A DNA stretch of 64,000 nucleotides from a virus. Location of the stretch: positions 57,947 to 121,946 of the IMG/VR virus record IMGVR_UViG_3300035665_000004; one strand, written 5' to 3'. The first letter of the stretch is position 1. Every line of letters begins with the position of its first letter. This document shows positions 11,820 to 58,246 of the stretch, in pieces. The notes beneath the pieces were generated by a model that did no database searches, was not told where the DNA came from, and saw only the letters and a list, made by a program, of their open reading frames with translations. The translations under genes were made by a program, and so were the position numbers.

Positions 11820-12863
11820 TTATTTTTTTGCCGGATTTTTAATCGGTTCAATAATTTCTTTAGCATACCAACCTATTTGAAATTCTGTAGAATTTCTTTC
11901 TAATTGTTTAAGAGTGTTTTCACTACAATTCACAAAAATTGGGCAACCGTTATTTTTGTATGATTCAGTTAATTTACGTCTTGAGAGTTTATGTTTTTTG
12001 CAGAAATCATCAAAATTTCCATATGACGTACCAAACAAAGTACCATCCACACGGTAAACTGAAATCTTTTTAGAATTAGGGGAAACGTAAAAATCATAAG
12101 CATCAAACTCACGTTTGGTCACTACCTTATTTTTTCCATCTCTAATATCCAAAACAGTTACTCTATCCTCAGATACATGTTTAAAAAATTCATTTTGTTC
12201 ATATTCCATCTTAGAAACTAACTTGTATTTTTCAGCAATAACATCAAAAACTAAAACACACCCCTTATTTTGTCGAACATAATAATCGAATTCGTAAAAT
12301 TCTTTAGTTGTTACCTGAACTGTGGTTCCATTTCTAATATCAATAACAGAAACTTTTCCAGTAGCCGCAGTAATATATTGATCCGACGAATTATATTCAT
12401 TAACACTTATACTTTTGATAACGTTGTCTTTGGTATCAAAAACAGTAACGAACCCTTTTGTACAATGTTGGTAAAAATCAGTATTTTTTAATTCCTCTTT
12501 CACCACCAACTTTGTTAACCCAGTTCTCACATCAATAACTGGAACTAATCCTACAGTAGTGAAACCATTACTAATTGATTTAACTTTGTTATAATATTCG
12601 GTGTTTCTTGAAACATCATACAATTCGTGTAATCTTATTTCTTCATTGAGTGCATATTCTCTTGTTTCCCAAACTGATAATATTTCTTTTTTAAAATTTT
12701 CAATTCCACCAAATTTAATTGCATTCTTTAAAGGTGTAGAAGACCCCATATATTTCACATCTTTTTCTGGAGAAACTTTTGATGTTCTAACACCTATATA
12801 ATATTTTTGGTTATCGATAGGGACAGTATTAATTATTTTGTAAACATAATGATATTGTTTCAA
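11820..12863 (-). CDS. GIY-YIG (Seg-like) free-standing homing endonuclease
   Basis: YVYKIIN...YYIGVR...YMGSS...E...YYN catalytic domain followed by five 32-aa repeats. TTG start with a GGGAG RBS. Confidence 0.85.
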   Translation of the reverse strand: MKQYHYVYKIINTVPIDNQKYYIGVRTSKVSPEKDVKYMGSSTPLKNAIKFGGIENFKKEILSVWETREYALNEEIRLHELYDVSRNTEYYNKVKSISNGFTTVGLVPVIDVRTGLTKLVVKEELKNTDFYQHCTKGFVTVFDTKDNVIKSISVNEYNSSDQYITAATGKVSVIDIRNGTTVQVTTKEFYEFDYYVRQNKGCVLVFDVIAEKYKLVSKMEYEQNEFFKHVSEDRVTVLDIRDGKNKVVTKREFDAYDFYVSPNSKKISVYRVDGTLFGTSYGNFDDFCKKHKLSRRKLTESYKNNGCPIFVNCSENTLKQLERNSTEFQIGWYAKEIIEPIKNPAKK

Positions 12864-12901
12864 ATTTTCTCCCTGTGCTAAAAATTATTAATTTCCTAAC
12901 C

Positions 12902-12923
12902 ATTATACAAACTATTGTATAAT
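12902..12923. promoter_or_regulatory. Palindromic back-to-back TATAAT boxes between the endonuclease and PolB C-half
   Basis: ATTATACAA-acta-TTGTATAAT is a perfect inverted repeat that places a TATAAT on each strand. Confidence 0.5.
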
Positions 12924-12953
12924 ATAATATATTCTTATTAATTGGTAAAAAAT

Positions 12954-13073
12954 ATGTTGAAAAAAGTTAAAGTTAAATCGGTTAAAAAAATTGATTATTC
13001 TGGTAAAGTATATGATGTAGTTATGAAAAGTAACCCACATACATTTTTTGCAAATAATATTTTGGTACATAAT
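12954..13073 (+). other. Split intein C-fragment (40 aa)
   Basis: MLKKVKVKSVKKIDYSGKVYDVVMKSNPHTFFANNILVHN|S contains block F (VYD) and block G (HN), with +1 Ser. Confidence 0.9.
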
Positions 13074-14099
13074 TCCTGTTATTTCAGAGTAATGGAGGCA
13101 GAAAACTTAGAACAGGCAGAAAAAATAAGTAGAGAGGTAGTTGACGCCTGTGATAAAAAATCTATCCCATCAATAGTTACCAATATTTTTAATGGTAATG
13201 ACATTATGCGTAGTGATTTTGAAGCAATTTCTCGATCAACACTGTCGTATGGTAAGAAAAAACAATACGCATTTCTTAAAGCCTGGGAGGATGGAGAAAC
13301 CTTACCAACTCCAAAATTAAGCATCACTGGTTTATCAATTAAAAGAAGTGATTCACCAAAACAGTTATCTACTGAAATGAAACCATTCTTTACCGAAATT
13401 ATGAAAGGTTTAACAAAAGAACAGATAAAAATCGCAATGGATAAAATTGAAAAAGATTATGATGCTCTACCAACATATGAATTGGCAGCTAAACGTTCAG
13501 CGAATAACTTATCAAAATATTTAAGGGCATTTAACTATGAATTAGTTAAAAAGGATAGACCATACAACATCGAAAAATTAGATGAGGCAGTTGAAAACGC
13601 TTGTGATGGGCGAGTATCCATCGATGATAAAATTTATGATGATTTCATGAGAACAGGCAAAGGTGTTTATTCCATCGAAAATAATAAATTGGTTAAAGAT
13701 ATAAAAGGTGATTTAATCATAGAGGCAAAAGTTAAAATGGTTATTCCATTTCATATCAAAGCATCGATACTTTATAATTATTTGTTAGAATTATACGATT
13801 TAAATGATTTCAATCCAATTTTAGATGGTGAAAAAATAAAATTATTTTATATTCAACCACAAAAATTTAATATAAAATACACGGATCTAGATGGAAACAA
13901 ATATGATATGATACAAACTTTTGATTGTATTGCGTTCCCATCAAACTCAAAAAAAATACCAAATTTTATCAATACATTTACACCAGACAAAAAAAGAATG
14001 TTGGATACTTATTTCTTTGGTAAAATGGAAACAATTTTTGATGTTATCGATTTTAATAAAGAAAAATTAGAAAATATATCAATGGATTTATTGTTTTGA
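12954..14099 (+). CDS. DNA polymerase B (gp43-like) C-terminal half carrying a split-intein C fragment
   Basis: The 40-aa intein-C ends ILVHN and is followed by SCYF, the Ser of the (Y.DTD)S motif. KKKQYA and PKLSITGLSIKRSDSP are PolB palm/thumb motifs. ATG at 12954. Confidence 0.9.
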   Translation: MLKKVKVKSVKKIDYSGKVYDVVMKSNPHTFFANNILVHNSCYFRVMEAENLEQAEKISREVVDACDKKSIPSIVTNIFNGNDIMRSDFEAISRSTLSYGKKKQYAFLKAWEDGETLPTPKLSITGLSIKRSDSPKQLSTEMKPFFTEIMKGLTKEQIKIAMDKIEKDYDALPTYELAAKRSANNLSKYLRAFNYELVKKDRPYNIEKLDEAVENACDGRVSIDDKIYDDFMRTGKGVYSIENNKLVKDIKGDLIIEAKVKMVIPFHIKASILYNYLLELYDLNDFNPILDGEKIKLFYIQPQKFNIKYTDLDGNKYDMIQTFDCIAFPSNSKKIPNFINTFTPDKKRMLDTYFFGKMETIFDVIDFNKEKLENISMDLLF

Positions 14100-14208
14100 T
14101 AGAATAATGTCTACAAAAGTGAAAAAAATACTAATTAATCAACATTTTTGTAGTTTCTATTACAGGGGGCATAAATATATTCAATACCAACAATGATGAT
14201 TAATTATT

Positions 14209-16701
14209 ATGCCCACTAATATAAAAATTGATACCCTGACTATTGATATTTTGAATCATCTCAATATAATTGTGACCGACGCTAATAATAATATAACCTT
14301 TATTAGTGACAACTATTTAAATGCGTTGGAATATACTATCGATGAGGTTATTGGAAAAAATCCTATAATTTTTAGACATCCAACAATTAATAATCTACCA
14401 ATATTAAATTTTGTAAATAAAAATGGTGGACATTGGAACGGATTATTAAAAAATATTACAAAAAGTGGAAAAACTATATATTTCAATGCCGATATTTACA
14501 AAGATTATGATGAAAATGGTAATCATATTGGGTATCATTCAATACATACTGACATAACTACAACTATAACAAACCCCCATAAATTTATTTTTGATAATGA
14601 ACTTTTATCAATTATATTTTCAGAAAATATAGAATACCTAATCATCTGTTTGAGTGACGAGTTCGATGAAAATAAACACGAAATTATCAAGATTAGTCAC
14701 CCATTACTAGAATTGATAGGTATTGAAGCCGATAAATTAGTTGAGCAACACGCAAGTTTTGTAGATTTAATATCACCAAAGTCAATTTATTACAAAAATT
14801 TAAAACTGTTAATGCATGATCTTAACAATGAAAACCCATTACCGGTTGATATAAAAACGAAAAATAGGGATGCAAAATACAGAGTTTCATACACCCCTTT
14901 CAAATTCAATGATAAAGCAGCTCAATTATTTACGATGATTGACATAACCACCGAAATATCTTTTTCCGATCAACTCCAAAGTATAATAAAATCAAAAAAT
15001 GAATTTTTGGCAAATTTAGCCCACGAAATTAAAACTCCATTGAATGCAATTAATGGTTTTATTTCACTACTACAAATGCGTGAAACAAATAAAGAAAAAC
15101 TAGACTATATTGAATTAGTGTTGGAAAGTGTTAAACATGTAATAAACATTTCCAACGATACCATCGATTTTATTGGTATGGATAATAGTAAAATAGAGAT
15201 AAATCCTAGAGAATTTACACCAAAAGATATTCAGTCAACCATAGAAATATTTTTTGCAAAGAGTTTAGAAAAAAACATTGAATTGACTGCATATATTTCA
15301 CCACAATTACCAGAAATAATGTTTCAAGATATTTTGCGATTAAAACAAATCATAACCAATCTTATCAGTAATGCATTAAAATTCGTTAATGTTGATGGTA
15401 GAGGAACTATAGTGATAGAATGTCATTTCAACAATGACAAATTTTATTTTACTATTGTCGATAATGGAATTGGAATGTCCACAGAACAAATAGAAAATAT
15501 ATTTAATCCTTTTTATCAGGCATCAAAAGATACAAAAATGGTTTATGGTGGTACAGGGTTAGGATTGGCTGTTGTTAATCAAATAATTGAACTTATGGGT
15601 GGTAGTATTACTGTAGAAAGTGAACTCGGTGTAGGTTCAACATTTTCAGTTATTATACCAGTAAAATCAGTTAAAGAGTTTCAACATACAATTGGTCGAA
15701 TGGATATACCAAACATTTACATTTATGCCCCATCATTTTCCAATACAAAACATGAAATTTTAAAGAAATATCTGTTCGATTTTACAACCGCAAAGATCAA
15801 TAAAGTTGCAGAAATTGATACATTGAATTCAATAACGGATAGTGTGATACTACTTTATGTATGTGATACAGATATAAAAACTATACTCCAATTAAGTAAA
15901 ACAAATAGAATTATTGTAGTTAAAAAAATGGACATGGTTATCAACAATTTTACAAATTCGTCCGAAATAATAGAAATAAATTTACCCATTTTAGGATCAA
16001 AAATATATGATGCACTAAATTTACTAATATCCGGTAGAATGGAACAATTCTATAAAAATAACTTCTTAGATATGACAATATCTGGTAGAATATTGGTGGC
16101 AGATGATCAAGAATCGAATAGACTACTAATAAATCGATTATTATCATGTTATGATGTAACGATTGATGTAGTATGTGATGGTAGAGAGGCAGTTAATTAT
16201 TTTAAAAAGAGTATAATAGAAAACAAATCGTATTACGACTTAATATTGCTTGACGTCAACATGCCAATATTAAACGGCGTTGATGCCGCGAGAGAAATAA
16301 GACTTTTCGAAAAAATGAATAATATTACTAGAACTACAATAATATCATTAACAGCGGATAGATATACGGACAAAAATGATAGTAGATTGGTAGATATGGA
16401 TGAATATATACCCAAACCTATTAATTTAAAACGGATGTTATATCTAATTGTGAAATACACAACTGATCTAAAATTGGTTGATGAAAACTTGTTATACGAT
16501 GAAAAAATTAAAAAATTGAAAGAGATACGTGACGAATTTTTAAAACCAAATAATGAATTTAAAACAATGATAGACAATTATAAAAAACATTTTGATGGTT
16601 CGGAATTACCAATTATTGAAGGTTTAAAAGATTTAACTAATAAAAATGAATTCACTGCAAACTATAATAAAATTATGAAAATTTTTAGGAAGCACGGATG
16701 A
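14209..16701 (+). CDS. Hybrid sensor histidine kinase (Aer-type PAS - PAS-like - HisKA - HATPase - degenerate REC - REC)
   Basis: PAS: IFRHP...W.G..KN.TKSG. H-box: LAHEIKTPLNAI. N-box: NLISNALKF. G1: DNGIGM. G2: GGTGLGL. REC: VADD...LLDVNMP...LTA...PKP. Confidence 0.92.
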   Translation: MPTNIKIDTLTIDILNHLNIIVTDANNNITFISDNYLNALEYTIDEVIGKNPIIFRHPTINNLPILNFVNKNGGHWNGLLKNITKSGKTIYFNADIYKDYDENGNHIGYHSIHTDITTTITNPHKFIFDNELLSIIFSENIEYLIICLSDEFDENKHEIIKISHPLLELIGIEADKLVEQHASFVDLISPKSIYYKNLKLLMHDLNNENPLPVDIKTKNRDAKYRVSYTPFKFNDKAAQLFTMIDITTEISFSDQLQSIIKSKNEFLANLAHEIKTPLNAINGFISLLQMRETNKEKLDYIELVLESVKHVINISNDTIDFIGMDNSKIEINPREFTPKDIQSTIEIFFAKSLEKNIELTAYISPQLPEIMFQDILRLKQIITNLISNALKFVNVDGRGTIVIECHFNNDKFYFTIVDNGIGMSTEQIENIFNPFYQASKDTKMVYGGTGLGLAVVNQIIELMGGSITVESELGVGSTFSVIIPVKSVKEFQHTIGRMDIPNIYIYAPSFSNTKHEILKKYLFDFTTAKINKVAEIDTLNSITDSVILLYVCDTDIKTILQLSKTNRIIVVKKMDMVINNFTNSSEIIEINLPILGSKIYDALNLLISGRMEQFYKNNFLDMTISGRILVADDQESNRLLINRLLSCYDVTIDVVCDGREAVNYFKKSIIENKSYYDLILLDVNMPILNGVDAAREIRLFEKMNNITRTTIISLTADRYTDKNDSRLVDMDEYIPKPINLKRMLYLIVKYTTDLKLVDENLLYDEKIKKLKEIRDEFLKPNNEFKTMIDNYKKHFDGSELPIIEGLKDLTNKNEFTANYNKIMKIFRKHG

Positions 16702-16705
16702 CGAA

Positions 16706-16713
16706 TATAAATA
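16706..16713 (+). promoter_or_regulatory. T4-type late promoter TATAAATA upstream of the holin-like gene
   Basis: Exact TATAAATA ending 20 bp before ATG 16734. A CATAAATA variant at 14170-14177 precedes the kinase. Confidence 0.7.
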
Positions 16714-16733
16714 TCATAAAAAGGGGGTTATAG

Positions 16734-17123
16734 ATGCATATTTTGCTTGATTTAGATGTTTCACTATATATACTATTATTTTTTATCGCAGGTACGATAG
16801 GATTAGTAGTGCGTATAGATCAATGGGTCGAAGGAGATTTTTCACATCCAATCAAAGAAAACGGTACATTAGATATCCTCAGATCGTTTTGGTCGTATGT
16901 ATTAACATTCTTATTATCGGGATTATCGGGAGCAATTGTATCGATAGGGACAGGTTATATTTTAGAAAATAAGGATACAAACATAATGATCTTCACTGCT
17001 GTAATGATTGGTGCAATTGGAAAACTCATTTTTTATAAACTTGTGGAATGGGTACATTTTAAAGTTGATGATGTGTTGACACCTAAAAAAAATAATAACC
17101 AAGCACATAGAAGAGGGAAATGA
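16734..17123 (+). CDS. Putative class I holin (3 TM)
   Basis: 129 aa, three hydrophobic segments and a strongly basic C-terminus (KKNNNQAHRRGK), under a late promoter. Confidence 0.55.
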   Translation: MHILLDLDVSLYILLFFIAGTIGLVVRIDQWVEGDFSHPIKENGTLDILRSFWSYVLTFLLSGLSGAIVSIGTGYILENKDTNIMIFTAVMIGAIGKLIFYKLVEWVHFKVDDVLTPKKNNNQAHRRGK

Positions 17124-17521
17124 TTATGGTTAACGATTTAATTGATTCTGTTGATTTAAATACTTCTGATGAGTGGAACCAAAAAAAAAGTGTTAACCTT
17201 ATTCGCCACACAGAAACTATCGATAAACTTGTTGTCCAAAATAAAACATTACAAAGAGAATTGCGTGAACTTTCAATACACGCGGAACAATTACAAAATA
17301 AATTATATGACAGCAATGTTAGAATTTCTAAAAATTTATTTTATATTGGATTATTTGCACTCGCTTATTTTGTTTACAGTGTAAATAGCAACCTAATAAT
17401 GTTAAACGATAAGTTAATTGAGATAAATGTTGTAGTTGCACAATACAAAGATATAACTGAAAAAAATAAGTTATACAATCAAATTATGACAGAACAAAAT
17501 GGTATTAATAAAACCAAATAA
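17120..17521 (+). CDS. Single-pass membrane protein with coiled coils on both sides
   Basis: Central TM segment LFYIGLFALAYFVYSV with heptad-rich flanks; ATGA overlap with the holin-like gene. Confidence 0.7.
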   Translation: MIMVNDLIDSVDLNTSDEWNQKKSVNLIRHTETIDKLVVQNKTLQRELRELSIHAEQLQNKLYDSNVRISKNLFYIGLFALAYFVYSVNSNLIMLNDKLIEINVVVAQYKDITEKNKLYNQIMTEQNGINKTK

Positions 17522-17545
17522 TAATAGGGGAAAAGGGAGATAAAA

Positions 17546-18163
17546 ATGCTTAGTAATTTATTTGGTAAAAAAATTCGTAAAGTGGATTATCACAACACTA
17601 ATAAATCTGAAACACACAACTTCACAAATATGCAGGATCAAATCACATGGTTGACAGATAATGGTTGGGTAAATGGAAATACTTTCAATAAAAGTAACAA
17701 AAATATCCTGATAATGGATGACAGACAAGATATAATTTCCGCAGTCATTGATGATTTAGAAAGAATGGACGAAACTGAAATAATAAATCTAAATCATTTT
17801 AACCTGATAACTGTTTCATCAAAAAATGCAGGTTTTCACGTATTGGATATTTTAGAAAAAGCACCAAATATAACCATAGATTATGCACTATTAGATATTG
17901 TATTAGGTGGAAAAAAAATAGTAGATGGTGTAAAACAAATGGTAGATGGTGTTGATGTTGCAATACAAATATGGGAACGGTTTTCAACAGCACAGATACT
18001 TTTTTTTAGTGGTTGTATCATTGAAAATTCTAACGACCGTGATGATTTTAAAAACAGATTTACTAGTTATACACAAGAAGATATATCGGATTATTTGTTG
18101 CCAAAGGACATTGATTTTGATTCCGAAATCGATCAACTAGCAACATTTTTCAACGGTTTTTAA
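17546..18163 (+). CDS. Stand-alone response regulator receiver protein
   Basis: NILIMDD, YALLDIVL (phospho-Asp), ILFFSG (Ser) and LLPK (Lys). N-terminal extension of about 50 aa and no output domain. Confidence 0.8.
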   Translation: MLSNLFGKKIRKVDYHNTNKSETHNFTNMQDQITWLTDNGWVNGNTFNKSNKNILIMDDRQDIISAVIDDLERMDETEIINLNHFNLITVSSKNAGFHVLDILEKAPNITIDYALLDIVLGGKKIVDGVKQMVDGVDVAIQIWERFSTAQILFFSGCIIENSNDRDDFKNRFTSYTQEDISDYLLPKDIDFDSEIDQLATFFNGF

Positions 18164-18171
18164 AATTATTT

Positions 18172-19455
18172 ATGGCTATCGATTTTAAAAATATAGCTAT
18201 TAGTAGTTTAACAATAACTGGGGTAACATTTGCGTCTGTGCTTTGCATAACAATTACTGTAAATTTATATACCACATTTACAATATCAAATGAATTCGAA
18301 CCATCAATAAATTTATTAGCTAGAAATTATATCAATTCAAAAAACTCACCAACATTATTGACGGATAATTTTACCGATTCTCAAATAAATGTAGTTATAT
18401 TTGATGAAGAAAAAAACAAAATATTTAAACTTAATAATAATTCTTTAATTGACATTAGTGATTCATCACCATTTCCAAAATTAATTAGTGTACCATTTGA
18501 TGTTTATATTTCTTCTATGACAACGTTTGAAATGTCCACACTTGCAACTATGTATAATGTAGACAATTTAAAAATAAAACTAGATATATATGATAAGAAG
18601 CATATAGCCGCCGATACATTTATAATGTTACTAATAACTAACAGTCTTATTTCTCATATTTTATATTTTAAATTAGTTGCTAGAAATAAACTGATATTGA
18701 AATCACTGATTAAAGTTGAACAATACGAATACGCTCTTTCACAAAGAACAACAGCAGATTTGGTAAGTATAACACATCATAAATTGAATACGCCCCTAAA
18801 GGTTTTAAATACAAAATCCAGAATGTTGATTGATATAATAAAATCACAGGATAACATTTCACAAAAAACATTAGATAAGGCTTTGTTGGATTATCATAGT
18901 ATTGAATCTTCATTAACCACAATTTCTGAGGTTACTGATACATTAAAATCATTTAATGATTTGAGTAAACATGAATTGAATTTATATAAATTGTTTAACG
19001 TTGCGAAAGAAACTACCAATGTATTGAATGATGATGAATTTGAAATTATATTAGATGAAAAAACTAAATTGTTCAATATTGATAAATCATATATAAATTC
19101 ACATGAAATGATTCAAATTTTTATAAATCAAATAAATTTTTCATTGTCAATGTTAGCAGATAAAATTCATATAAAAGTATTTAATACCTCAAATAATGTT
19201 ATGATATTATTATATTCTGATAATGGGAATATAATTACCGATGATATGATCGATGATCTAAATACCAATAATGAAATATTTGTAAATGCAGATACCAACC
19301 ATAAAAAAAATACACATTATGATTTAACTTTAAACTTTATTATTTTAAATTCGAAAGATTTTTCAAATATAAAAATTCTCTCATCTAATAGAAATGGAAA
19401 CATATTTGAGATTAAACTACCTGTTGTTCGAGCAGATGAAACAAAAAAATTTTAA
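18172..19455 (+). CDS. Membrane histidine kinase-like protein with a degenerate ATPase domain
   Basis: Two TM segments flank a roughly 120-aa extracytoplasmic region. H-box-like ITHHKLNTPLKVL, N-box-like QIFINQIN and YSDNG are present, but there is no G2 GxGLG. Confidence 0.7.
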   Translation: MAIDFKNIAISSLTITGVTFASVLCITITVNLYTTFTISNEFEPSINLLARNYINSKNSPTLLTDNFTDSQINVVIFDEEKNKIFKLNNNSLIDISDSSPFPKLISVPFDVYISSMTTFEMSTLATMYNVDNLKIKLDIYDKKHIAADTFIMLLITNSLISHILYFKLVARNKLILKSLIKVEQYEYALSQRTTADLVSITHHKLNTPLKVLNTKSRMLIDIIKSQDNISQKTLDKALLDYHSIESSLTTISEVTDTLKSFNDLSKHELNLYKLFNVAKETTNVLNDDEFEIILDEKTKLFNIDKSYINSHEMIQIFINQINFSLSMLADKIHIKVFNTSNNVMILLYSDNGNIITDDMIDDLNTNNEIFVNADTNHKKNTHYDLTLNFIILNSKDFSNIKILSSNRNGNIFEIKLPVVRADETKKF

Positions 19456-19456
19456 A

Positions 19457-19801
19457 TCATTGGTTTTTTAAACTATCCATAAGATCATCAAACATAGGTC
19501 TTATTTCATGTAATGGTGTGCCTTTTCGAAGTTCTAACTCCATATCTTGACAAAGATCACTTTCATAATAAAAATCACCATACAATAGTAGATTTTTTAC
19601 TGAGTGTAACTTAGTAGAAACAGCCGATATATTGTTAATATCATCATTGAATAACATAGTATTGATTTCCAACAAAGTCTCTTCAATATTGTCTACCATT
19701 AAAGTTGCTTTTATACTAACCTCATCACCATTTAGAGTTTCACATAAAAAATCATATATAGCATCGTAAAATTTAATTCTATCAATTGATGAGTTCATCA
19801 T
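19457..19801 (-). CDS. HPt (histidine phosphotransfer) domain protein
   Basis: All-helical and acidic, with KLHSVKNLLLYGD...SDLCQDME matching H.LKG...G....L...C..LE. Start placed at ATG 19801 after GGGGGA. Confidence 0.7.
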   Translation of the reverse strand: MMNSSIDRIKFYDAIYDFLCETLNGDEVSIKATLMVDNIEETLLEINTMLFNDDINNISAVSTKLHSVKNLLLYGDFYYESDLCQDMELELRKGTPLHEIRPMFDDLMDSLKNQ

Positions 19802-19864
19802 AGTTTCCCCCAAAATACCACTTATATCTAAAAATTTAACACCAATATTAAAACTTCAAAAAAA

Positions 19865-34452: not shown

Positions 34453-37400
34453 CTACATAGTTTTTGTTGCCTGAGCACCTAAGATAGCTGTAAGTTGTGT
34501 AACGAGCATAGTTTTAAAATTAACTTTACTATACGCATTAGTTGCAACCGCTTCAACTATTGGTGCACCAGCAGCAGTAGTATAAACCGTAGATTTTTTA
34601 GTTACTAATTCCTGCATCCACTTATCGATTTCAAATGAAGTAACTGTATCTAAACCAGCTAAATAGTTAATACCATCTTTAAACATCGCATCGATTTGTG
34701 TTTTAGTATAATACGTAGGTGTTGTCATACTAATAGAAACATTAAGTCTTGACACCCATTTATTAATATCCGCCGAACTTATTGGATCGATACCATTTGA
34801 CAATTTTAAACCAGCTTTAACAATTTCAAATGCTTCTTCTTTGTTATAAGCACCATTTGTACTAGGTATTGGTCTGAATTCATCCGCTCTTGCTATCGCA
34901 TTACCAGTAGTCATATCGGGTTGTACTGTATATCCCAACGCAGAGAATTTACCTGGATTCACAACATCTTTATTATCAATCCAGTTTTCTAAAGATGTAT
35001 GGAATGCTCCAAGTTCTGTATCATTGATAGCAGTTCCTTTTGTCAAAATATGATCTCTGATTTTACTTAAACCACTAATCAATATCAATTTAGTTTCAAG
35101 TTTAGTGAAATAACCGGTTGCATCACCTTTAATGCTAGATGTTAATGATTTCAATTTTGCTGCCCAATTATCTAAACGCATTTTAGTAATTTCTACAGCA
35201 TTATCCATATTAGATGTAGTCATATACTTAATGTTAGCTTTATAATCGGTTGGGTTCCAACCTAATTGAACATAATGTCCACCATCACTTTCAGAATAAG
35301 CCAAGTCAATTCTATACCAACCAGATACTGCAAAATCATATGAATACGCAGTATCTCTACAGCAATATTTATTTCTAGCAATAATCTCTTTATTGATAAA
35401 CACTGCATGTGGATCATCACCATTCAATTTAACATTGTCAATTTTAAATGGTGTACTAACAAAAATCCATGTGGTATAAATCGCATGGTAATTATGTACG
35501 TTACCCCAAACAGTTGGTCCAGCAATAAATCCAGAGTTGAATTCATTACCCAACACATCAGTGTATGTTTTTGTTAATGAGTTGGTTTTAACATTTTTAG
35601 TTGCAACCGGTGTTCTACCATTTTCTAAGAAATCTTGAACTAATTCAAGGTTTTTAGAACCTAAGAAACCAGCGTATCTAACACCTAACCACTCCCAATT
35701 AGTAACATTATCAGTTCCAACTGGAGGCAATACTCTAGCAGACGATGCTAAAATAAACCCTTCGTAAATCAACTCCAATGTTTCCGCTCTTGAATAGAAC
35801 TCGGCACTAACATCAACACCTAAATTTTTAACAGATAATCTCTTAATCCAACGATCTAATTCAGTTGCAGATAACATAGTTTTACCTGTAACTGTTTTTA
35901 ATACAGTAACTAAGAATTTCATGAATTCCAACTTAGTATATGGTCCTTCCATGTTTTCAACAAACGCAGTAATCATATCAGAGATATATACTTTATTTGG
36001 TCTTTGAAGAACTGCACCTGAAGTATCTTTCAACCCATAACCATTACCAGTTGATGATCTCCAACTATCAAATGCATCATTATCCATATCACCAACGATA
36101 CCATCAATAGTATCAATCAACAAATTTTTACTAATATCTTTAGTAAATACATTTGCAGATAAATCTGCTAAATGGGTATTTGTTGTTTCTAATCCCAATG
36201 TTAATACTGCATCTTGTGCATTCATATCTTTTCTAATTGCTGCCTCAGTTGTAGCAATATGTTTGTACAATAAATTTGCAGTAGTATTGATATAATTAGT
36301 AGTTTGATCGAATTTAATATGTGTTTCTTCAGTTAAATCAACCAATTTTTTATAATTTTTATCAACCGCCAGTTCAAGATCTTCAATTCTTTTTCTTTGA
36401 TCATTTGCATCAATTCTTAAATCGATAATATCCCTAGTGTTGATTTCATCATATAATAACCCATCTGGTCTATAAGTAGTTTTTGATACCATAGAACCAC
36501 CAGCTTTATAATCAATTGAGAATAACCAACGCAACATAACTTTGAATTTGGCTTTTCTATCTCTACCAACAGATGAAGTTTCCAATGTCGCATGACGTTC
36601 ATCAACTAAAGTAAACCCTGTAATGTCATCTGCAAAATTAGGTTTATCTTCAGATACATAGATACCATTAATAAAGAATCCAGTACCATTATCATTGAAT
36701 TCTGGGTGGTAAACACCTTGGTTTCTTCTATTAATAATTGCAACTGGAATAGCATGAACATAACCATTATATGATAAAGGTGTTTTTTCCTCAACTGTAA
36801 ATAATGAATCATCATACAATTTACCTTCTTTATATAATAAAGAATTATGGCTAGATGCAATAATTAGATTACCACCCGCAAAAATTTGAGCAGTTTCTAA
36901 AATAGGTTGACCAGCTTTACCTACACCATCAGCAGTTGTATATGTACCAATTTCTCTGGTTACTATTCTTGATGTAACGGGCGATTTACCTTGGAATCTC
37001 AACCCTTGAGACATGTAATCAGATGTACCTTTGAAATAGTTATTAAATAAGTTAAGAGCAACAACTCTTGTTCTATATCTAACTTGAATTAATGTTTCCC
37101 CACTATAATATAAATTATGGTCGGCATTTCTAAAGATTGTAGTTCTTTCAACATCAGATAACGCAGATAATTTCCAGCCTTTACCCACCGTCGTATCTTC
37201 TACAAATGTACTATTGATATATTTTATCTCATCTGCATCAGCCGCTTCAAATGATGTGCCACCATAATAGTTATATACGATGTCACCTTTTTGGAACATT
37301 TGACAGTATTTCTTAGCACCACCATCAATTACTGTAGATTCGCCAGAAACAGTATCATAAAATACGTGGTCAAATACAGTTGTTGGTACGCCATCAGCAG

Positions 37401-40400
37401 TTGTTCCTTGATATTGTACGTTACCAAATGGGAAAATAAATCCTGTTTCAGAAACATCTTCGTGCCATGTTTCAATGAACACTAAATCTTTTCTTTCCAA
37501 TACTACGATGTCAATCAAATCAAACGCATCATTTCTTCTAACAACAACATTCTGTCCAACAGAATCAATCATTGATAATGTTAATGTTTGACCATCCTGG
37601 ACATAATCATCCCCTTCAGACCAATTAATTTGTTCATGTACAACCTCAAATGGAATTTCTGTACCATCATCATACTCGATATTGAAATCAATAGCAAATG
37701 TTAATTCTCCACCCTGTGATGCAACTCTTGTTGAAGTAAATACGTCTACACCAGAAGATAATAAACGAACAACAACCTCATCAGTTGCTTTAGTATGTAA
37801 AATAGTAAACGTTTTTCCAAATCTATAATAACCAACTTTAGATCCAGTAATATCTTCCCACATATTTAATAAAGGTGTTTCAACACCCGAAATAGTTCTT
37901 GATATAAACTGTACTTTGCCTGTAGTTGGATTTATTCCAGTTTCCACCATAAAATTTCTAGTGTAACTGTATTCATAAATATTTTCACCATCTTCATTAA
38001 GAATAGGTTCGCCAAGTGCATCAACTTTTACTTTTTTCAATACAAACTGATCAACGTTAGTTGCCAATACAGCTTTTATAGTTGTTTTAACTCCTGCAGT
38101 CATAATGTCAGTAATTTCAAAAGCATCAATTGCTGCATCATTAAGAACATGAACTGCCGCAGTAATTATATTAGATTTCGCAACTTGTAAATATTCATTA
38201 ACTTTTGTATCGGATGTGTTTAATACTGATAAACCATCACCTCTACCGCTTGGAACTAAATATGTTAGCGACAAACCATCAGATTTAGATAACAGTTCTG
38301 CTTGACCTGCCCAAATTTTTTCCAATTCAATCCAATATCTGTTTGGTGTTAAATCCAATGCCAGTTTATAATACTGTCTCAAAATCTCTTTTTGTACGTT
38401 TTCTGGTTGACGCAATAAAGATTCTCTGGTAGTTGGTACAAATTTACCATTCACCATTTTACCTTTTGTTGGACCAATGTACTTATAAAATTTAACATTT
38501 GCTTTATCAAAAACAACATCACCATTAGTTAATGTTTTTCCATCTGGTAACAAATCGCCCATAAACCACGTATATTCATGTCCATATAATGCTTGTGGAA
38601 CCACAATATCAAACTTATTTTTAATAATTTCGAATGGTATGGTAACAGTAGGTTGAACTACAGTTGAATTAAAATCAATTTTCAATTCAGCCTGTGGAGC
38701 TTGAATTCTACTCAATACCATAGAATCAGTTATTTGTGCAGTTGTAAGATACAATACATAGTTAGATAAGAAATATTCATCACCATAAATCATCGCAGCA
38801 TCTTCATTTTTTGCAACTGTTTGGATGCCAGTTAAATTTAACAAAAATTTATTTGCTCTATTGTTAGTATAAGTTGACCAATATTTGATATTTTCAAGTA
38901 TTAGAATATATGAGGCTAACGCAGGATTTTTATCTAGCATAAAATTAGCATCATTAATAACAAACATATTCGAACCATTATTCGCAGCGATACGCTCTAT
39001 GCTGTAAGTAGGTTTAGTAATAATAACCATTTCACCAGTTACAGGATTTTGTTCCCACACTCTTCTGATAACTGTAAATCTGATTGTGTCACCTTCAGCA
39101 GCATCAATAATTCTAAAGTTTTGTCCTTTACGTTCATATTCTAATTCATAAACAGTAACATCTTCCCAAAATACGCTAAGTGGGTCAACTATAATTGCTT
39201 TATTATCACCCATTTGTTCATATGCTAATGGTGAACCAGTATATTGGTAATATCTATTATTTTTAGCCTTAACAATATCATGAAAATCTAATTGTTTACC
39301 TGCGGTTAATAACTCACCTTCAGTCCAATCAAAATGATTACCTGTTAAAGGTTCGGGCATAACGATGTCACCAGTATTATTTTTCCAATGGCCAGCAACA
39401 TCATTTGTTAATACAGTTGCTGTATTAGGTGAACCTTTTTTCTCCAATCTTAAAATAATATCTTTTTTACCAACACGTTTAACATAAAGTGTATCACCTT
39501 TTTTAGTATCTTCATTAAATTCTAAATCTTTAGATAATTTCAATACTGCTTCCACATTATAATCAAAATATCTTGCTAATTGTGTGCCATTTCTAGTTAA
39601 AACTACGTTACCTTGAACAAAGTTAAAAGGTACTGAAATAACTAAATTCAATACATCTTCCAACACATTTTCAGTTTCAAACAACGGTGACAATTCAGAA
39701 TATGCTACGGTTACTTCAGTTTCAGTACCATCAGCTGCAATAGTAACCATTTTAGTAGCATCAACAACATAAACTTTGGTACCATCTAATTTTTGGAATA
39801 CTCTGTAACCATCCAAGCTAGTTAACTGAATTTGTTGACTATACTCGTTTTCAACATAAGTTCTTAAATTTTCTGAATCAAAGAAAAATACCAATCCGTT
39901 CGCTTTGTAGAACATTTGATTAGAAACTACAGCTGTATCGGTATTAGTAATTGTCCCAGAAAAAATTTCCTGTACATCTTGTGCGGGTGTATATAATTTT
40001 CCTTCAGAATCGATATAATAAATATCTTTATTTTTCTTTCTATAATACTTAGTACCAACTTTATGATGATAATAAAATTCTTTACCTTTACTATATTTTG
40101 GTGATGATGATAATGGTCCAACCATAACTGCATTTAAAGTTCCATCAACAAAAGTAATAGGACGATAAACGTTTGGTTTGTCACCAGCATTATTAAGTGT
40201 ATTGGTAAACACCCCATTTTTATCTAATACAGTCATGTCATTAGTATCTTGGAACATCACAGTATCAATTCTGTAATAAGCCAATGATTCAGTATTAATG
40301 GTATAAACTGGTGTATCAAGTGCACCATTAGAAATATTATCAGTCACCTGAATTTTACCAGTTGCAGGTATTTCTGAACCAATCGACAAATAAGTTCTAT

Positions 40401-41667
40401 AATCTGTATCATATACCAATTTATATTTTGGTCCACCAACTTCGGCTTGCCAGAACATCAATGAAGGGTCTGCGGAAATTTCATCATCTGACAAAACCAC
40501 ATTTTCTCCATCTACACCAATATCATATTTTCTAAATTGGTGATAATAGAATAATTTTGAACTTTCAACGAATACATTAATACCATTTTCAGAAATATAA
40601 GTATAATCACTACCACCAGAAACTAAAGGTGCTGTAACTTTATCAAATTTTGATGCAGATACTAAAGTAGTTACTAATTCCTGATTATCCATACCGTTTA
40701 CAGTGGTAGCAACTACATTATATGTAACCAACATTGGTTTAGTAGTTGTAACATCTTGTTCAACACCATCAATAACATCCCTAACCGTTACAGTCATGGT
40801 TTCCAAATATACTTGGTTATCATTACGTTTCAAGGGAACTTTAACCACATTTGTACCAATAGGACTTTTGATTTCAAATAATGCAGACGTTTGAGGATCA
40901 ACATATTTAACACCAGCATTTTCATCATAAATCATATCAAAACTAAACACTGAACCGAATGTATTAGTAAATTTTGTATATGGTTCAACCAATAAATCTG
41001 TAGGTGCATTTTGTCTATAACTTCTACCATCAACATTCAAATAAAATAAATTTGATGCCTCATCAGTGTAATAATAAATGGTATTATTACCTTCTATGAT
41101 TTTAGAAAGTTGTAATTTGTTAGAATCTGTGATTCTTTTTTTGATTGCAATTTGAATAGCACGGTCTAAAACAGTTTTTGCCCGTGTAACTTTTTTACTA
41201 GGTTGAAACTTCATTACCATATCATTGTCTTCTGGGAAGAAAACAGGTAAATTTGGTGCAATTGGCAATTTCATCATTTTACTCATATCTTGACCGATAT
41301 TACCAACGGTATAATTCAAAATATGTCCACCAATACTAATACCTCTTTTTTGACCATCAATAGTTCTTGGTTCAAAAGGTGATTCATTAGTATTTAAATT
41401 TGAAACCCAAACACCAGTGTCACCTTGTTCGCCAGTTCTGAATGGCACAAAGTTTCTATTGATTTCAATAAACCCTGATTTTTCGAGATTTCTTTTATTT
41501 ACTTCGACATCACGTTCAACCTGTGTAGTTTCTGGTAATCCAAAAATCACATTGATTTCCGCAACTCGATTATCCAAATAATCTAAGATGCTACCTTCTT
41601 TAGCTTTAAGATCATTACTGATCTTAGTAAAGACTTCGGCATGTAACTGATCTAATCTAATACCCAT
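34453..41667 (-). CDS. Very large virion structural protein (baseplate/tail-associated), 2404 aa
   Basis: Lies in the late structural cluster and is beta-rich. Contains RRNQGVYHPEFN and RPDGLLYDEI..RDIIDLR motifs, a coiled coil, a PA14-like segment and C-terminal Y.K.E helical repeats. Confidence 0.6.
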   Translation of the reverse strand: MGIRLDQLHAEVFTKISNDLKAKEGSILDYLDNRVAEINVIFGLPETTQVERDVEVNKRNLEKSGFIEINRNFVPFRTGEQGDTGVWVSNLNTNESPFEPRTIDGQKRGISIGGHILNYTVGNIGQDMSKMMKLPIAPNLPVFFPEDNDMVMKFQPSKKVTRAKTVLDRAIQIAIKKRITDSNKLQLSKIIEGNNTIYYYTDEASNLFYLNVDGRSYRQNAPTDLLVEPYTKFTNTFGSVFSFDMIYDENAGVKYVDPQTSALFEIKSPIGTNVVKVPLKRNDNQVYLETMTVTVRDVIDGVEQDVTTTKPMLVTYNVVATTVNGMDNQELVTTLVSASKFDKVTAPLVSGGSDYTYISENGINVFVESSKLFYYHQFRKYDIGVDGENVVLSDDEISADPSLMFWQAEVGGPKYKLVYDTDYRTYLSIGSEIPATGKIQVTDNISNGALDTPVYTINTESLAYYRIDTVMFQDTNDMTVLDKNGVFTNTLNNAGDKPNVYRPITFVDGTLNAVMVGPLSSSPKYSKGKEFYYHHKVGTKYYRKKNKDIYYIDSEGKLYTPAQDVQEIFSGTITNTDTAVVSNQMFYKANGLVFFFDSENLRTYVENEYSQQIQLTSLDGYRVFQKLDGTKVYVVDATKMVTIAADGTETEVTVAYSELSPLFETENVLEDVLNLVISVPFNFVQGNVVLTRNGTQLARYFDYNVEAVLKLSKDLEFNEDTKKGDTLYVKRVGKKDIILRLEKKGSPNTATVLTNDVAGHWKNNTGDIVMPEPLTGNHFDWTEGELLTAGKQLDFHDIVKAKNNRYYQYTGSPLAYEQMGDNKAIIVDPLSVFWEDVTVYELEYERKGQNFRIIDAAEGDTIRFTVIRRVWEQNPVTGEMVIITKPTYSIERIAANNGSNMFVINDANFMLDKNPALASYILILENIKYWSTYTNNRANKFLLNLTGIQTVAKNEDAAMIYGDEYFLSNYVLYLTTAQITDSMVLSRIQAPQAELKIDFNSTVVQPTVTIPFEIIKNKFDIVVPQALYGHEYTWFMGDLLPDGKTLTNGDVVFDKANVKFYKYIGPTKGKMVNGKFVPTTRESLLRQPENVQKEILRQYYKLALDLTPNRYWIELEKIWAGQAELLSKSDGLSLTYLVPSGRGDGLSVLNTSDTKVNEYLQVAKSNIITAAVHVLNDAAIDAFEITDIMTAGVKTTIKAVLATNVDQFVLKKVKVDALGEPILNEDGENIYEYSYTRNFMVETGINPTTGKVQFISRTISGVETPLLNMWEDITGSKVGYYRFGKTFTILHTKATDEVVVRLLSSGVDVFTSTRVASQGGELTFAIDFNIEYDDGTEIPFEVVHEQINWSEGDDYVQDGQTLTLSMIDSVGQNVVVRRNDAFDLIDIVVLERKDLVFIETWHEDVSETGFIFPFGNVQYQGTTADGVPTTVFDHVFYDTVSGESTVIDGGAKKYCQMFQKGDIVYNYYGGTSFEAADADEIKYINSTFVEDTTVGKGWKLSALSDVERTTIFRNADHNLYYSGETLIQVRYRTRVVALNLFNNYFKGTSDYMSQGLRFQGKSPVTSRIVTREIGTYTTADGVGKAGQPILETAQIFAGGNLIIASSHNSLLYKEGKLYDDSLFTVEEKTPLSYNGYVHAIPVAIINRRNQGVYHPEFNDNGTGFFINGIYVSEDKPNFADDITGFTLVDERHATLETSSVGRDRKAKFKVMLRWLFSIDYKAGGSMVSKTTYRPDGLLYDEINTRDIIDLRIDANDQRKRIEDLELAVDKNYKKLVDLTEETHIKFDQTTNYINTTANLLYKHIATTEAAIRKDMNAQDAVLTLGLETTNTHLADLSANVFTKDISKNLLIDTIDGIVGDMDNDAFDSWRSSTGNGYGLKDTSGAVLQRPNKVYISDMITAFVENMEGPYTKLEFMKFLVTVLKTVTGKTMLSATELDRWIKRLSVKNLGVDVSAEFYSRAETLELIYEGFILASSARVLPPVGTDNVTNWEWLGVRYAGFLGSKNLELVQDFLENGRTPVATKNVKTNSLTKTYTDVLGNEFNSGFIAGPTVWGNVHNYHAIYTTWIFVSTPFKIDNVKLNGDDPHAVFINKEIIARNKYCCRDTAYSYDFAVSGWYRIDLAYSESDGGHYVQLGWNPTDYKANIKYMTTSNMDNAVEITKMRLDNWAAKLKSLTSSIKGDATGYFTKLETKLILISGLSKIRDHILTKGTAINDTELGAFHTSLENWIDNKDVVNPGKFSALGYTVQPDMTTGNAIARADEFRPIPSTNGAYNKEEAFEIVKAGLKLSNGIDPISSADINKWVSRLNVSISMTTPTYYTKTQIDAMFKDGINYLAGLDTVTSFEIDKWMQELVTKKSTVYTTAAGAPIVEAVATNAYSKVNFKTMLVTQLTAILGAQATKTM

Positions 41668-57760: not shown

Positions 57761-58246
57761 TTAGAATTCTGTACCAAACGGTGGTAATACAATGGGGGCA
57801 ACCTTGAATTTATCCCACCCTAGATGATCGGGATGTAAAAAAACTATAGAAGTAACTATGGTCATGCGAAATATTTCACCCAAATCATCAAATTTTTTAC
57901 TATAAGTATTCAATAAATACCCAAGAGTATTCAACAATCTTTGATATTCTTTTTCATCAGGTTGATAAATATCAACTAATTGTTCCACCAACCAACTATA
58001 TTCAAACACATATTCGGTTTCAACACATAGCCAGTTTCCACGCAATTTTTTTGTTATGTCGTTAATACCTTCATTAGTAATAAACAACCCATCTTTTTGC
58101 CATATGGTATCAGTAACATCAAAATAATTTGAATCCATCACACATTCAATTAAACTATCCAACAATTCAAAATATTTTTCATTATCAGTATTCGATCTAA
58201 CCTCACATAATACTTGACCAATAATTGTATCCATGTAAAACTCCAT
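57761..58246 (-). CDS. Hypothetical protein
   Basis: 161-aa acidic ORF; no motif recognised. Confidence 0.7.
   Translation of the reverse strand: MEFYMDTIIGQVLCEVRSNTDNEKYFELLDSLIECVMDSNYFDVTDTIWQKDGLFITNEGINDITKKLRGNWLCVETEYVFEYSWLVEQLVDIYQPDEKEYQRLLNTLGYLLNTYSKKFDDLGEIFRMTIVTSIVFLHPDHLGWDKFKVAPIVLPPFGTEF

Follow-up and report, generated by a model that had tools for sequence, protein, structure and literature searches.

A putative multi-step phosphorelay, probably expressed late in infection, encoded by a large freshwater phage

The subject of this analysis is a cassette of six open reading frames (ORFs) in a stretch of viral DNA of 64,000 nucleotides, positions 57,947 to 121,946 of the IMG/VR record IMGVR_UViG_3300035665_000004. 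This stretch, which we call the window, forms the end of a viral contig of 121,946 bp, and the CheckV completeness of the contig, about 48%, implies a genome near 250 kb. The reading that we favour, with moderate confidence, is that the cassette encodes a multi-step phosphorelay belonging to the phage itself, expressed late in infection and placed at the inner membrane. The phosphorelay part of this reading is well supported by predicted protein sequences and folds, by invariant catalytic residues and by the conservation of the genes as a block. A first-pass annotation of the same DNA had described a complete phosphorelay around a holin-like gene and had proposed that it acts as a switch for lysis. 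All six ORFs that it had called are open at the coordinates collected in Table 1, and the His-Asp-His-Asp parts list that it had claimed is present and is kept as a block in six of six loci.

Table 1. Coordinates of the cassette, of its late-promoter-like elements and of related features. Positions without a prefix are those of the window; prefixed positions are those of the contigs named. The last column gives the protein identity of the relatives to the window. aa, amino acids; TM, transmembrane.
Feature	Position	Strand	Description	Identity
CATAAATA	14170..14177	+	One-mismatch T4-type late-promoter-like element, 31 nt before the ORF1 ATG	
ORF1	14209..16701	+	Predicted cytoplasmic hybrid histidine kinase, 830 aa (Pfam and alignment)	40-48%
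TATAAATA	16706..16713	+	Exact late-promoter motif, 21 nt before the ORF2 ATG	
ORF2	16734..17123	+	129 aa, three TM segments, clade-specific	62-68%
ORF3	17120..17521	+	Membrane-anchored helper, 133 aa, one TM segment at about 73-89	37-48%
ORF4	17546..18163	+	Predicted stand-alone divergent receiver, 205 aa (fold and residue set)	45-52%
ORF5	18172..19455	+	Histidine-kinase homolog with two TM segments, 427 aa; extracytoplasmic loop of about 120 aa	34-53%
ORF6	19457..19813	-	Predicted stand-alone HPt protein, 118 aa, convergent with ORF5	40-50%
Family-B DNA polymerase (PolB) fragment	within 11820-14099			73-81%
Two-TM/SLT gene pair	G000:C1:33920-34821 (L025:1429-2330)		About 23 kb before the window start, about 40 kb upstream of the cassette	
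Small gene and DnaJ gene	L004:11980-13517		Between the ORF5 and HPt genes	
Small gene and DnaJ gene	L006:11938-13425		Between the ORF5 and HPt genes	
Small gene and DnaJ gene	L008:11930-13404		Between the ORF5 and HPt genes	
Small gene and DnaJ gene	L027:8391-9827		Between the ORF5 and HPt genes	
Small gene and DnaJ gene	L028:8241-9761		Between the ORF5 and HPt genes	
Genes of about 90 and about 400 aa	L009:2836-4298		After the kinase gene of a distant locus	
Genes of about 90 and about 400 aa	L016:10764-12310		After the kinase gene of a distant locus	
Genes of about 90 and about 400 aa	L011:10717-12185		After the kinase gene of a distant locus	
Genes of about 90 and about 400 aa	L018:10768-12308		After the kinase gene of a distant locus	

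Six loci had enough flanking sequence for gene order to be compared: the window and five relatives from the same clade of uncultured freshwater phages, which we label L004, L006, L008, L027 and L028. In all of them the hybrid kinase gene, ORF2, ORF3, ORF4 and ORF5 follow one another on one strand and a convergent HPt gene lies beyond ORF5. The search for synteny in relatives that the first-pass annotation had proposed thus finds the six genes together in six of six loci at 34-68% protein identity, and conservation of the block at such identities indicates that the cassette is under selection. The convergent gene at the spot next to ORF5 in the relatives is unrelated to ORF6, and the idea that the HPt gene is not conserved was considered and rejected: searches with hidden Markov models found HPt homologs in five of five relatives, about 1.5 kb further along than in the window. 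The intervening DNA in five of the six loci holds two unrelated genes, both missing from the window, where the ends of ORF5 and of the HPt gene are one base apart. One is a conserved gene of 107-129 aa that belongs to no known family and the other encodes a full DnaJ, with J domain, zinc finger and C-terminal domain. Beyond the HPt gene the relatives carry a variable island. The one in L004 (14109-18013) contains flagellin, FlaG and a true CheY-like receiver of 129 aa (3e-39 to the CheY model); the one in L028 (10619-13265) contains flagellin and a FlgK-like hook-associated protein; and the one in L027 (11654-15335) contains a dCache_2/sCache_2 protein, a CHASE4-domain protein and a TonB-dependent receptor (Plug and barrel), sensory and outer-membrane genes that are unusual for a phage.

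The first component of the relay, ORF1, begins with an Aer-like PAS domain (20-117) and a second, weak PAS-like region, continues with HisKA (262-321, with the phosphorylatable-box histidine at H272), HATPase_c (374-486), a conserved linker (495-622) and a REC domain (628-744, with D682), and ends in a helical tail. PAS_9, HisKA (1.4e-14), HATPase_c (4e-30) and Response_reg (5.4e-15) all score above the Pfam cut-off. Among the aligned relatives of ORF1 the residues expected of a working enzyme do not vary: H272 in the HEIKTPL box, the nucleotide-binding boxes (N384/N388, D418-G420-G422 in the D418xGxG pattern, F432 and the G448-G450-G452 lid) and the receiver residues D632/D633, D682, T715 and K736. 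The Pfam matches and the invariance of every catalytic residue bear out the PAS-HisKA-HATPase-REC hybrid kinase of the first-pass annotation. A search for TM segments in ORF1 found none. The best NCBIfam models are of the BarA/LuxQ/RcsC/ArcB/TorS type, with E-values of about 1e-62 to 1e-69 and with scores that stay far below the equivalog cut-offs (for BarA, 234 bits against 890). ORF1 is predicted to be a hybrid kinase of that architectural class, without being orthologous to any of the named kinases.

The PAS domain has its best match in the PDB in the flavin adenine dinucleotide-binding PAS domain of E. coli Aer (8dik, 3.7e-7), with the residues of the RHP...W.G..KN..K.G signature aligned, and the next matches (LOV, MmoS and NifL) are all flavin PAS domains. 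R56, W76, G78, K81, N82, K85 and G87 are invariant among the aligned relatives. The C-terminal tail of ORF1, 85 aa long, was considered as a built-in HPt domain and rejected, as it has no conserved histidine and an hhalign probability of 0.2%; with no HPt built into ORF1, a separate HPt protein is required. The linker is a conserved region of about 130 aa (window 15691-16074) with an alternating strand- and helix-like pattern. Its similarity to receivers or to any family is not detectable, and hhalign did not support reading it as a pseudo-receiver.

The separate HPt protein would be ORF6. A phmmer search against the PDB matches it to 3myf, the HPt domain of a Shewanella hybrid kinase (1.2e-4; 3.1e-4 in the profile search), and the NCBIfam BarA model matches it on the HPt segment (9e-4). 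The AlphaFold2 model of ORF6 (predicted local distance difference test score, pLDDT, 89.7) is a helical bundle of five helices, and its top Foldseek matches are almost all HPt proteins or domains: 3myf, BarA, YojN/RcsD, HptB, plant AHPs and CheA-P1. H70 is invariant in the alignment of four sequences, within the motif K(L/F)H(S/T)xKN..(L/V)YGD, is kept in the homologs of L027 and L028, and aligns with the histidine of 3myf. With its matches to solved HPt domains by sequence and by fold and with its invariant histidine, the convergent HPt gene of the first-pass annotation is confirmed.

The acceptor at the end of the relay would be ORF4, in which an N-terminal extension of 50 aa is followed by a REC domain (about 50-205) that takes up a beta-hairpin at 123-132; ORF4 has no output domain. 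Its AlphaFold2 model, built on an alignment of 33 sequences, has a pLDDT of 83.8 and a predicted template-modelling score of 0.82. Foldseek returns 282 PDB matches to this model at E<=0.001, mostly receiver domains of response regulators, among them ComE, DesR, PmrA, CheY, Spo0F and RR468, and the top matches to isolated receiver domains have target TM-scores (template-modelling scores) of 0.57-0.78. The Atlas language model places ORF4 with REC families as well. Across the 33 sequences D58, D59, D117 and K187 do not vary, and S155 is replaced only by T. These residues, which are kept in distantly related loci too, stand at the C-terminal ends of beta1, beta3, beta4 and beta5 (52-58, 113-117, 150-155 and 184-186), where a phosphoacceptor set is expected. 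On its modelled fold, ORF4 is a very divergent single-domain receiver, predicted to be competent for phosphorylation, and the fold and the DD/D/S/K set agree with the output-less receiver that had been claimed. More than 130 clusters of ORF4 homologs occur in metagenomes (46-57% identity), some of them on contigs of 150-350 kb. Scans of IMG/VR with the single proteins ORF2 and ORF4 were empty, and their relatives came only from big protein collections.

ORF5 is a histidine-kinase homolog: its family profile matches SrrB (1e-14) and HK853 (4e-12) in the PDB over residues 191-415, which cover both the DHp and the CA domain. The comparison of the clade of the window with distant ORF5-like proteins shows that its catalytic boxes have decayed selectively. 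The H-box reads HHELNTPL in the distant proteins and HHKLNTPL in the clade of the window, with H203 and the threonine at +4 (T207) kept and the glutamate at +1 changed to lysine. The N-box has gone from N..KNS to N..KFS, the second asparagine being replaced by phenylalanine; the G1 box from DNGNG to DNGNx, with loss of the second glycine; and the RGNG(L/M) lid of the G2 box is lost (xYDLx). The N-box asparagine binds Mg-ATP in kinases such as EnvZ. The degenerate boxes are found in all 14 ORF5 proteins of the clade, against intact boxes in the other 37, and the 14 form one long branch in a quick maximum-likelihood tree, with a value of 100 in the Shimodaira-Hasegawa-like approximate likelihood ratio test. 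Each degenerate ORF5 with a readable context has a hybrid kinase, ORF2 and an HPt gene alongside. Of the second membrane kinase described in the first-pass annotation, the kinase homolog with two TM segments stands; a plain second sensor kinase does not, as the ATP site is degenerate, and the better description of ORF5 appears to be that of a kinase descendant lacking an ATP site.

The distant homologs of ORF5 (20-31% identity) were found on 15 further IMG/VR contigs (4 complete genomes of 96-223 kb), and their neighborhoods suggest where the cassette came from. An ORF4-like receiver gene lies directly upstream of the kinase gene in 13 of these 15 loci. Before the receiver, most of them have a gene for a protein of 140-170 aa with a single TM segment, by its position a possible counterpart of ORF3. 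After the kinase, most have genes for signal-anchored proteins of about 90 and about 400 aa, the majority of which begin with an N-terminal hydrophobic segment. Neither these two proteins nor other conserved flanking genes matched a Pfam or PHROG family, and it may be that the module originally had the two as its output or partner. No hybrid kinase, ORF2 or HPt gene lies within 10 kb of the module in any of the 15 loci. The ORF4 and ORF5 families were not detected in 185,579 cellular species genomes, nor in GenBank phages. The receiver, the membrane kinase and the small anchored helper are, as far as these comparisons indicate, an older module found so far only on viral DNA. The clade of the window differs from this ancestral viral module by the added hybrid PAS kinase, HPt and three-TM protein and by the disabled ATP site, and a two-component pair would in this way have become a four-step relay.

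Two small membrane proteins complete the cassette. ORF2 has TM segments at 8-26, 56-74 and 86-104, a strongly conserved loop with the sequence VRIDQWVEG..HP and, at the C-terminus, a basic tail with many K and R residues; its alignment has 57 invariant columns. All of its 42 homologs are 54-76% identical and belong to the clade that bears the hybrid kinase; ORF2 is absent from the 15 loci with the ancestral module. The first-pass annotation was right about a gene with three hydrophobic segments and an exact TATAAATA upstream. Its term for the product, holin-like, fits only in a loose sense, ORF2 being small, with three TM segments and a charged tail. Two clusters of ORF2 homologs carry the automatic name 'DedA' in the database of the Joint Genome Institute, which we rejected because Pfam gives it no support. 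ORF3, whose start overlaps the ORF2 stop (ATGA), has a conserved, cytoplasmic, helical N-terminus with the invariant motif TETIDKLVxQNKxLQ, then its one hydrophobic segment and a tail of 45 aa, in agreement with the single-pass membrane protein previously noted. When ORF4 (25-205) was co-folded with residues 1-72 of ORF3, its cytoplasmic portion, the score was 0.19 against a mark of 0.32, a result that weighs neither way.

Late expression is suggested by the elements upstream of ORF1 and ORF2. By number alone TATAAATA is not enriched, with 11 copies where chance predicts 16. Its placement is not random: of 17 copies in the contig, 10 fall between genes and 7 have a start on the same strand no more than 80 nt downstream, as against 9% for the 56 8-mers of the same composition (p=5e-4). 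The 8-mer of that composition that ranks first is ATAAATAT, which is TATAAATA shifted by one base. Because of this non-random placement, T4-type late promoters seem to be in use by the phage. In the relatives, the element before the hybrid kinase gene is an exact TATAAATA in L006 and has one mismatch in L004, L008, L027 and L028; the element before ORF2, at the same distance, is exact in L008 and has one mismatch in L004, L006, L027 and L028. No terminator was found inside the cassette, and a scan for sigma-70-like promoters stayed at chance level. With late-type elements before both ORF1 and ORF2 and no internal terminator, late expression would be a property of the whole cassette and not a mark of ORF2, and the cassette is probably driven by late-phage promoters. 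The late promoter that the first-pass annotation had noted before its holin-like gene does not single out ORF2, since a like element precedes the kinase gene as well.

Taken together, these components allow the following scheme. ORF1 would sense the redox or energy state of the cell through its Aer-like, probably flavin-binding PAS domain, autophosphorylate on H272 and pass the phosphate to its own D682; H70 of ORF6 would then shuttle it to D117 of ORF4. ORF5 would descend from the original cognate membrane kinase of ORF4, with the DHp histidine and threonine kept and ATP binding lost. The loss of the ATP site with retention of the histidine suggests that ORF5 most likely serves as a membrane-bound phosphatase, a docking site or a transferase like Spo0B or ChpT for ORF4, its action possibly gated by the extracytoplasmic loop. 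The coincidence of this loss with the arrival of the new kinase and HPt is the pattern expected if ORF4 is fed by a new branch, and the simplest reading appears to be that ORF4 is now phosphorylated through ORF1 and then the HPt protein. Having no output domain, ORF4 would have to act by protein contact; its most likely targets would be the small membrane proteins conserved along with it, ORF3 as the partner from the ancestral module and ORF2 as the one that came in with the hybrid kinase and the HPt gene. The process under control may be some late infection decision located at the membrane, lysis timing being one candidate among several. The encoded parts list and the late elements suggest that the virus probably reads the redox or energy state of the infected cell late in infection.

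Several points weigh against this scheme. The histidine of the RHP motif of Aer, H57 in ORF1, is D, Y or F in three of three aligned relatives. Because of this variation flavin binding is uncertain, and an Aer-like flavin sensor is likely but not secure; of the Aer-type signature that the first-pass annotation had recognized, the aligned motif and the best solved match hold, and the histidine does not. For ORF4, Pfam (Response_reg included), NCBIfam and PHROG give no match, the family profile finds nothing among PDB sequences at E<=1, and hhalign gives no link to the REC domain of ORF1 (probability 0.6%); its identity as a receiver comes from the predicted fold and residue geometry only. For ORF6, the Foldseek E-values are weak (0.013-0.7), and the Pfam model Hpt (PF01627) matches neither ORF6 at E<=0.1 nor anything in the contig at E<=10. 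That ORF5 lost its ATP site and that the clade acquired the hybrid kinase, ORF2 and HPt gene together count as one evolutionary event, with no independent replicates. With an HPt protein present, a transferase role of ORF5 would be redundant, and a phosphatase and a scaffold would look the same in sequence. Every arrow of phosphate transfer is one that we infer from the residues present. Finally, the contig covers about 48% of the genome, and a regulator with an output domain could sit in the other half.

A fuller version of the same scheme would have a virus-only two-component lineage of large phages upgraded to a four-step relay in one freshwater clade by the capture of an Aer-like, redox-sensing hybrid kinase, an HPt protein and a three-TM protein, with ORF5 converted into a membrane transferase or phosphatase of the Spo0B/ChpT type and with direct, phosphorylation-dependent control of a membrane complex of ORF2 and ORF3 setting a late decision, for example the time of lysis, by the energy state of the host. 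We regard this fuller version as possible but doubtful.

It is unlikely, in our judgment, that the relay serves to rewire the host, ending on the flagellar motor or switch, on chemotaxis or on host response regulators so that motility or physiology follows an Aer-like signal. Such a function would agree with a sensor closest to the PAS domain of the aerotaxis receptor, with the single-domain architecture that ORF4 shares with CheY and with the flagellar or sensory genes in the islands of L004, L028 and L027. However, the contig of the window has no flagellin gene and its island is empty, and flagellar genes are accessory (two of six loci) whereas the relay is constant. ORF4 is not a CheY ortholog and lacks NCBIfam and Pfam matches, and late expression would leave little time for a behavioural effect.

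We think it quite improbable that the cassette is the signal-controlled lysis switch of the first-pass annotation, in which ORF2 is a holin or holin regulator and the formation of holes is held back or set off when ORF4, once phosphorylated, binds to ORF2 or ORF3, in analogy to T4 lysis inhibition. The proposal draws on the small size, three TM segments and basic tail of ORF2, on the late motif before it and on its translational coupling to ORF3. Linkage of ORF2 to the signalling genes, set beforehand as a test that could refute the proposal, is seen in every relative (six of six loci). Some holin-family clusters come up in the Atlas language-model search with ORF2, at scores of 0.81-0.85 that are below the lead threshold of the tool. 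Nor does the available part of the genome, about 48%, offer a T4-type holin or lysozyme: searches of the contig for T4 lysozyme, Amidase_2 and holin T (PF11031, E<=1) found none. The only endolysin-type gene found in the contig belongs to the two-TM/SLT pair of Table 1, where a two-TM protein of 107 aa overlaps the start of an SLT-domain protein of 198 aa that has a signal-like N-terminus and E-values near 1e-29 to endolysin and lytic tail families of PHROG. We take this as a candidate holin-endolysin pair; it has a TATAAT-type element and no late motif upstream, and it is therefore not a secure lysis cassette either. Against a holin role, ORF2 matches no family in Pfam, PHROG or NCBIfam, whether holin or LrgA, and tblastn at E<=10 finds nothing relevant in 50,697 phage records. 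Holins tend to be some of the most variable proteins that phages encode, and ORF2 is conserved across the clade like virion or core genes, above the signalling proteins (Table 1). An endolysin or spanin gene adjoins the cassette in none of the six loci, the neighbours of ORF2 being the kinase and ORF3. The late motif precedes the kinase gene too, and the ancestral receiver-kinase module works without ORF2. A search for seven endolysin families in up to 15 distant records gave one match only, about 98 kb from the module. With no holin family match, core-like conservation and no adjoining lysis gene, ORF2 does not hold up as a holin, and the claim that the relay is a lysis switch, for which the shape of ORF2 had been the ground, is unsupported. 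The least likely account is that two circuits lie side by side for historical reasons, ORF5 and ORF4 as a relic pair and ORF1 with the HPt protein as a separate host-derived module addressing host regulators: it would suit the different histories of the ancient, virus-only receiver-kinase pair and the later hybrid kinase, HPt and ORF2 genes, the resemblance of ORF1 to cellular kinases of the BarA/ArcB/TorS type, and the convergent HPt gene with two unrelated genes before it in five of six loci, but the six genes stay together in six of six loci despite their 34-68% divergence, the ATP site of ORF5 disappears at the very point where the new kinase and HPt come in, and the acceptor residues of ORF4 and the histidine of ORF5 are invariant.

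The DNA that carries the cassette has a guanine-plus-cytosine content of about 30%, and near-identical DNA was recovered in several independent lake and freshwater metagenomes from 2016-2024. The closest deposited phages to its PolB fragment, at 22-27% identity, are jumbo phages of Pseudomonas, Salicola and Aeromonas. No transfer RNA genes were found in the window. The cassette is flanked by a split DNA polymerase gene on one side and by a gene for a CCA-adding enzyme on the other, and genes for tail fibres and virion proteins lie downstream of it on the minus strand. The interval 11820-14099 holds a gene for a GIY-YIG (SegE-like) homing endonuclease, divergent from the C-terminal PolB fragment, which is 385 aa long and starts with the C-terminal block of an intein (Intein_splicing, 4e-4). 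Among the tail-fibre-like genes is a single ORF of 2404 aa (34453-41667, minus strand). Further along, at 60084-62393 (minus strand), an ATP-dependent protease-like protein of 769 aa matches phrog_4871 over nearly its full length (754 bits); no other window gene that was scanned has a stronger match in PHROG.

The putative phage relay resembles several known systems in part. With ArcB-ArcA, BarA-UvrY, TorS-TorR, RcsC-RcsD-RcsB and LuxQ-LuxU-LuxO it shares the fusion of kinase and receiver followed by the histidine of an HPt domain and a second receiver. The phage version, in contrast, belongs to a virus and is probably under the control of late promoters. Its terminal receiver has diverged too far to be recognized by the Pfam model and lacks an output domain, DNA-binding or other, and the cassette adds a second kinase that is disabled and two small membrane proteins. 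Spo0B of B. subtilis sporulation and ChpT of the Caulobacter CckA-ChpT-CtrA/CpdR pathway are phosphotransferases derived from kinases, soluble proteins whose CA domain does not bind ATP. ORF5 is like them in keeping the histidine box of the DHp domain while the N-box asparagine, G1 and G2 are degenerate, and in its place in a relay downstream of a hybrid kinase, beside a single-domain receiver. Unlike them, it is anchored in the membrane by its two TM segments and has an extracytoplasmic loop, and the phage relay also has a canonical HPt protein; the comparison with Spo0B and ChpT is at the level of the general kinase fold only. E. coli Aer, whose PAS domain gave the best match to that of ORF1 among solved structures, has a HAMP/MCP signalling domain where ORF1 has a histidine kinase output, and ORF1 lacks a membrane anchor. 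With T4 lysis inhibition (holin T and the antiholins RI and RIII) and with the host system LytSR-LrgAB/CidAB, the only shared idea is that of a signal which could modulate a small membrane protein late in infection. In its overall build ORF2 resembles a class I holin, but no holin T homolog was found and no endolysin gene adjoins ORF2.

Phages are usually seen to read the state of the host through host regulators, small-molecule receptors or peptide signals. Our search of the literature returned no paper describing a phage relay of this kind. A census of two-component proteins left phages out (PMC4558063), an overview of jumbo phages has only a receiver variant outside kinase systems (PMC7824862), and a study of curli clusters in pelagiphages has lone kinases (PMC9599517).

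The system appears to be a multi-step phosphorelay in an unusual, virus-specific setting, and one whose origin can be traced. If a conserved His-Asp-His-Asp relay is indeed encoded by the virus, large lytic phages would run multi-input signal processing of their own. The transition from a two-component pair to a phosphorelay, in which the old kinase would have lost ATP binding at the same step, is rarely seen in so clean a form, and the change in ORF5 would mirror the presumed origin of Spo0B and ChpT.

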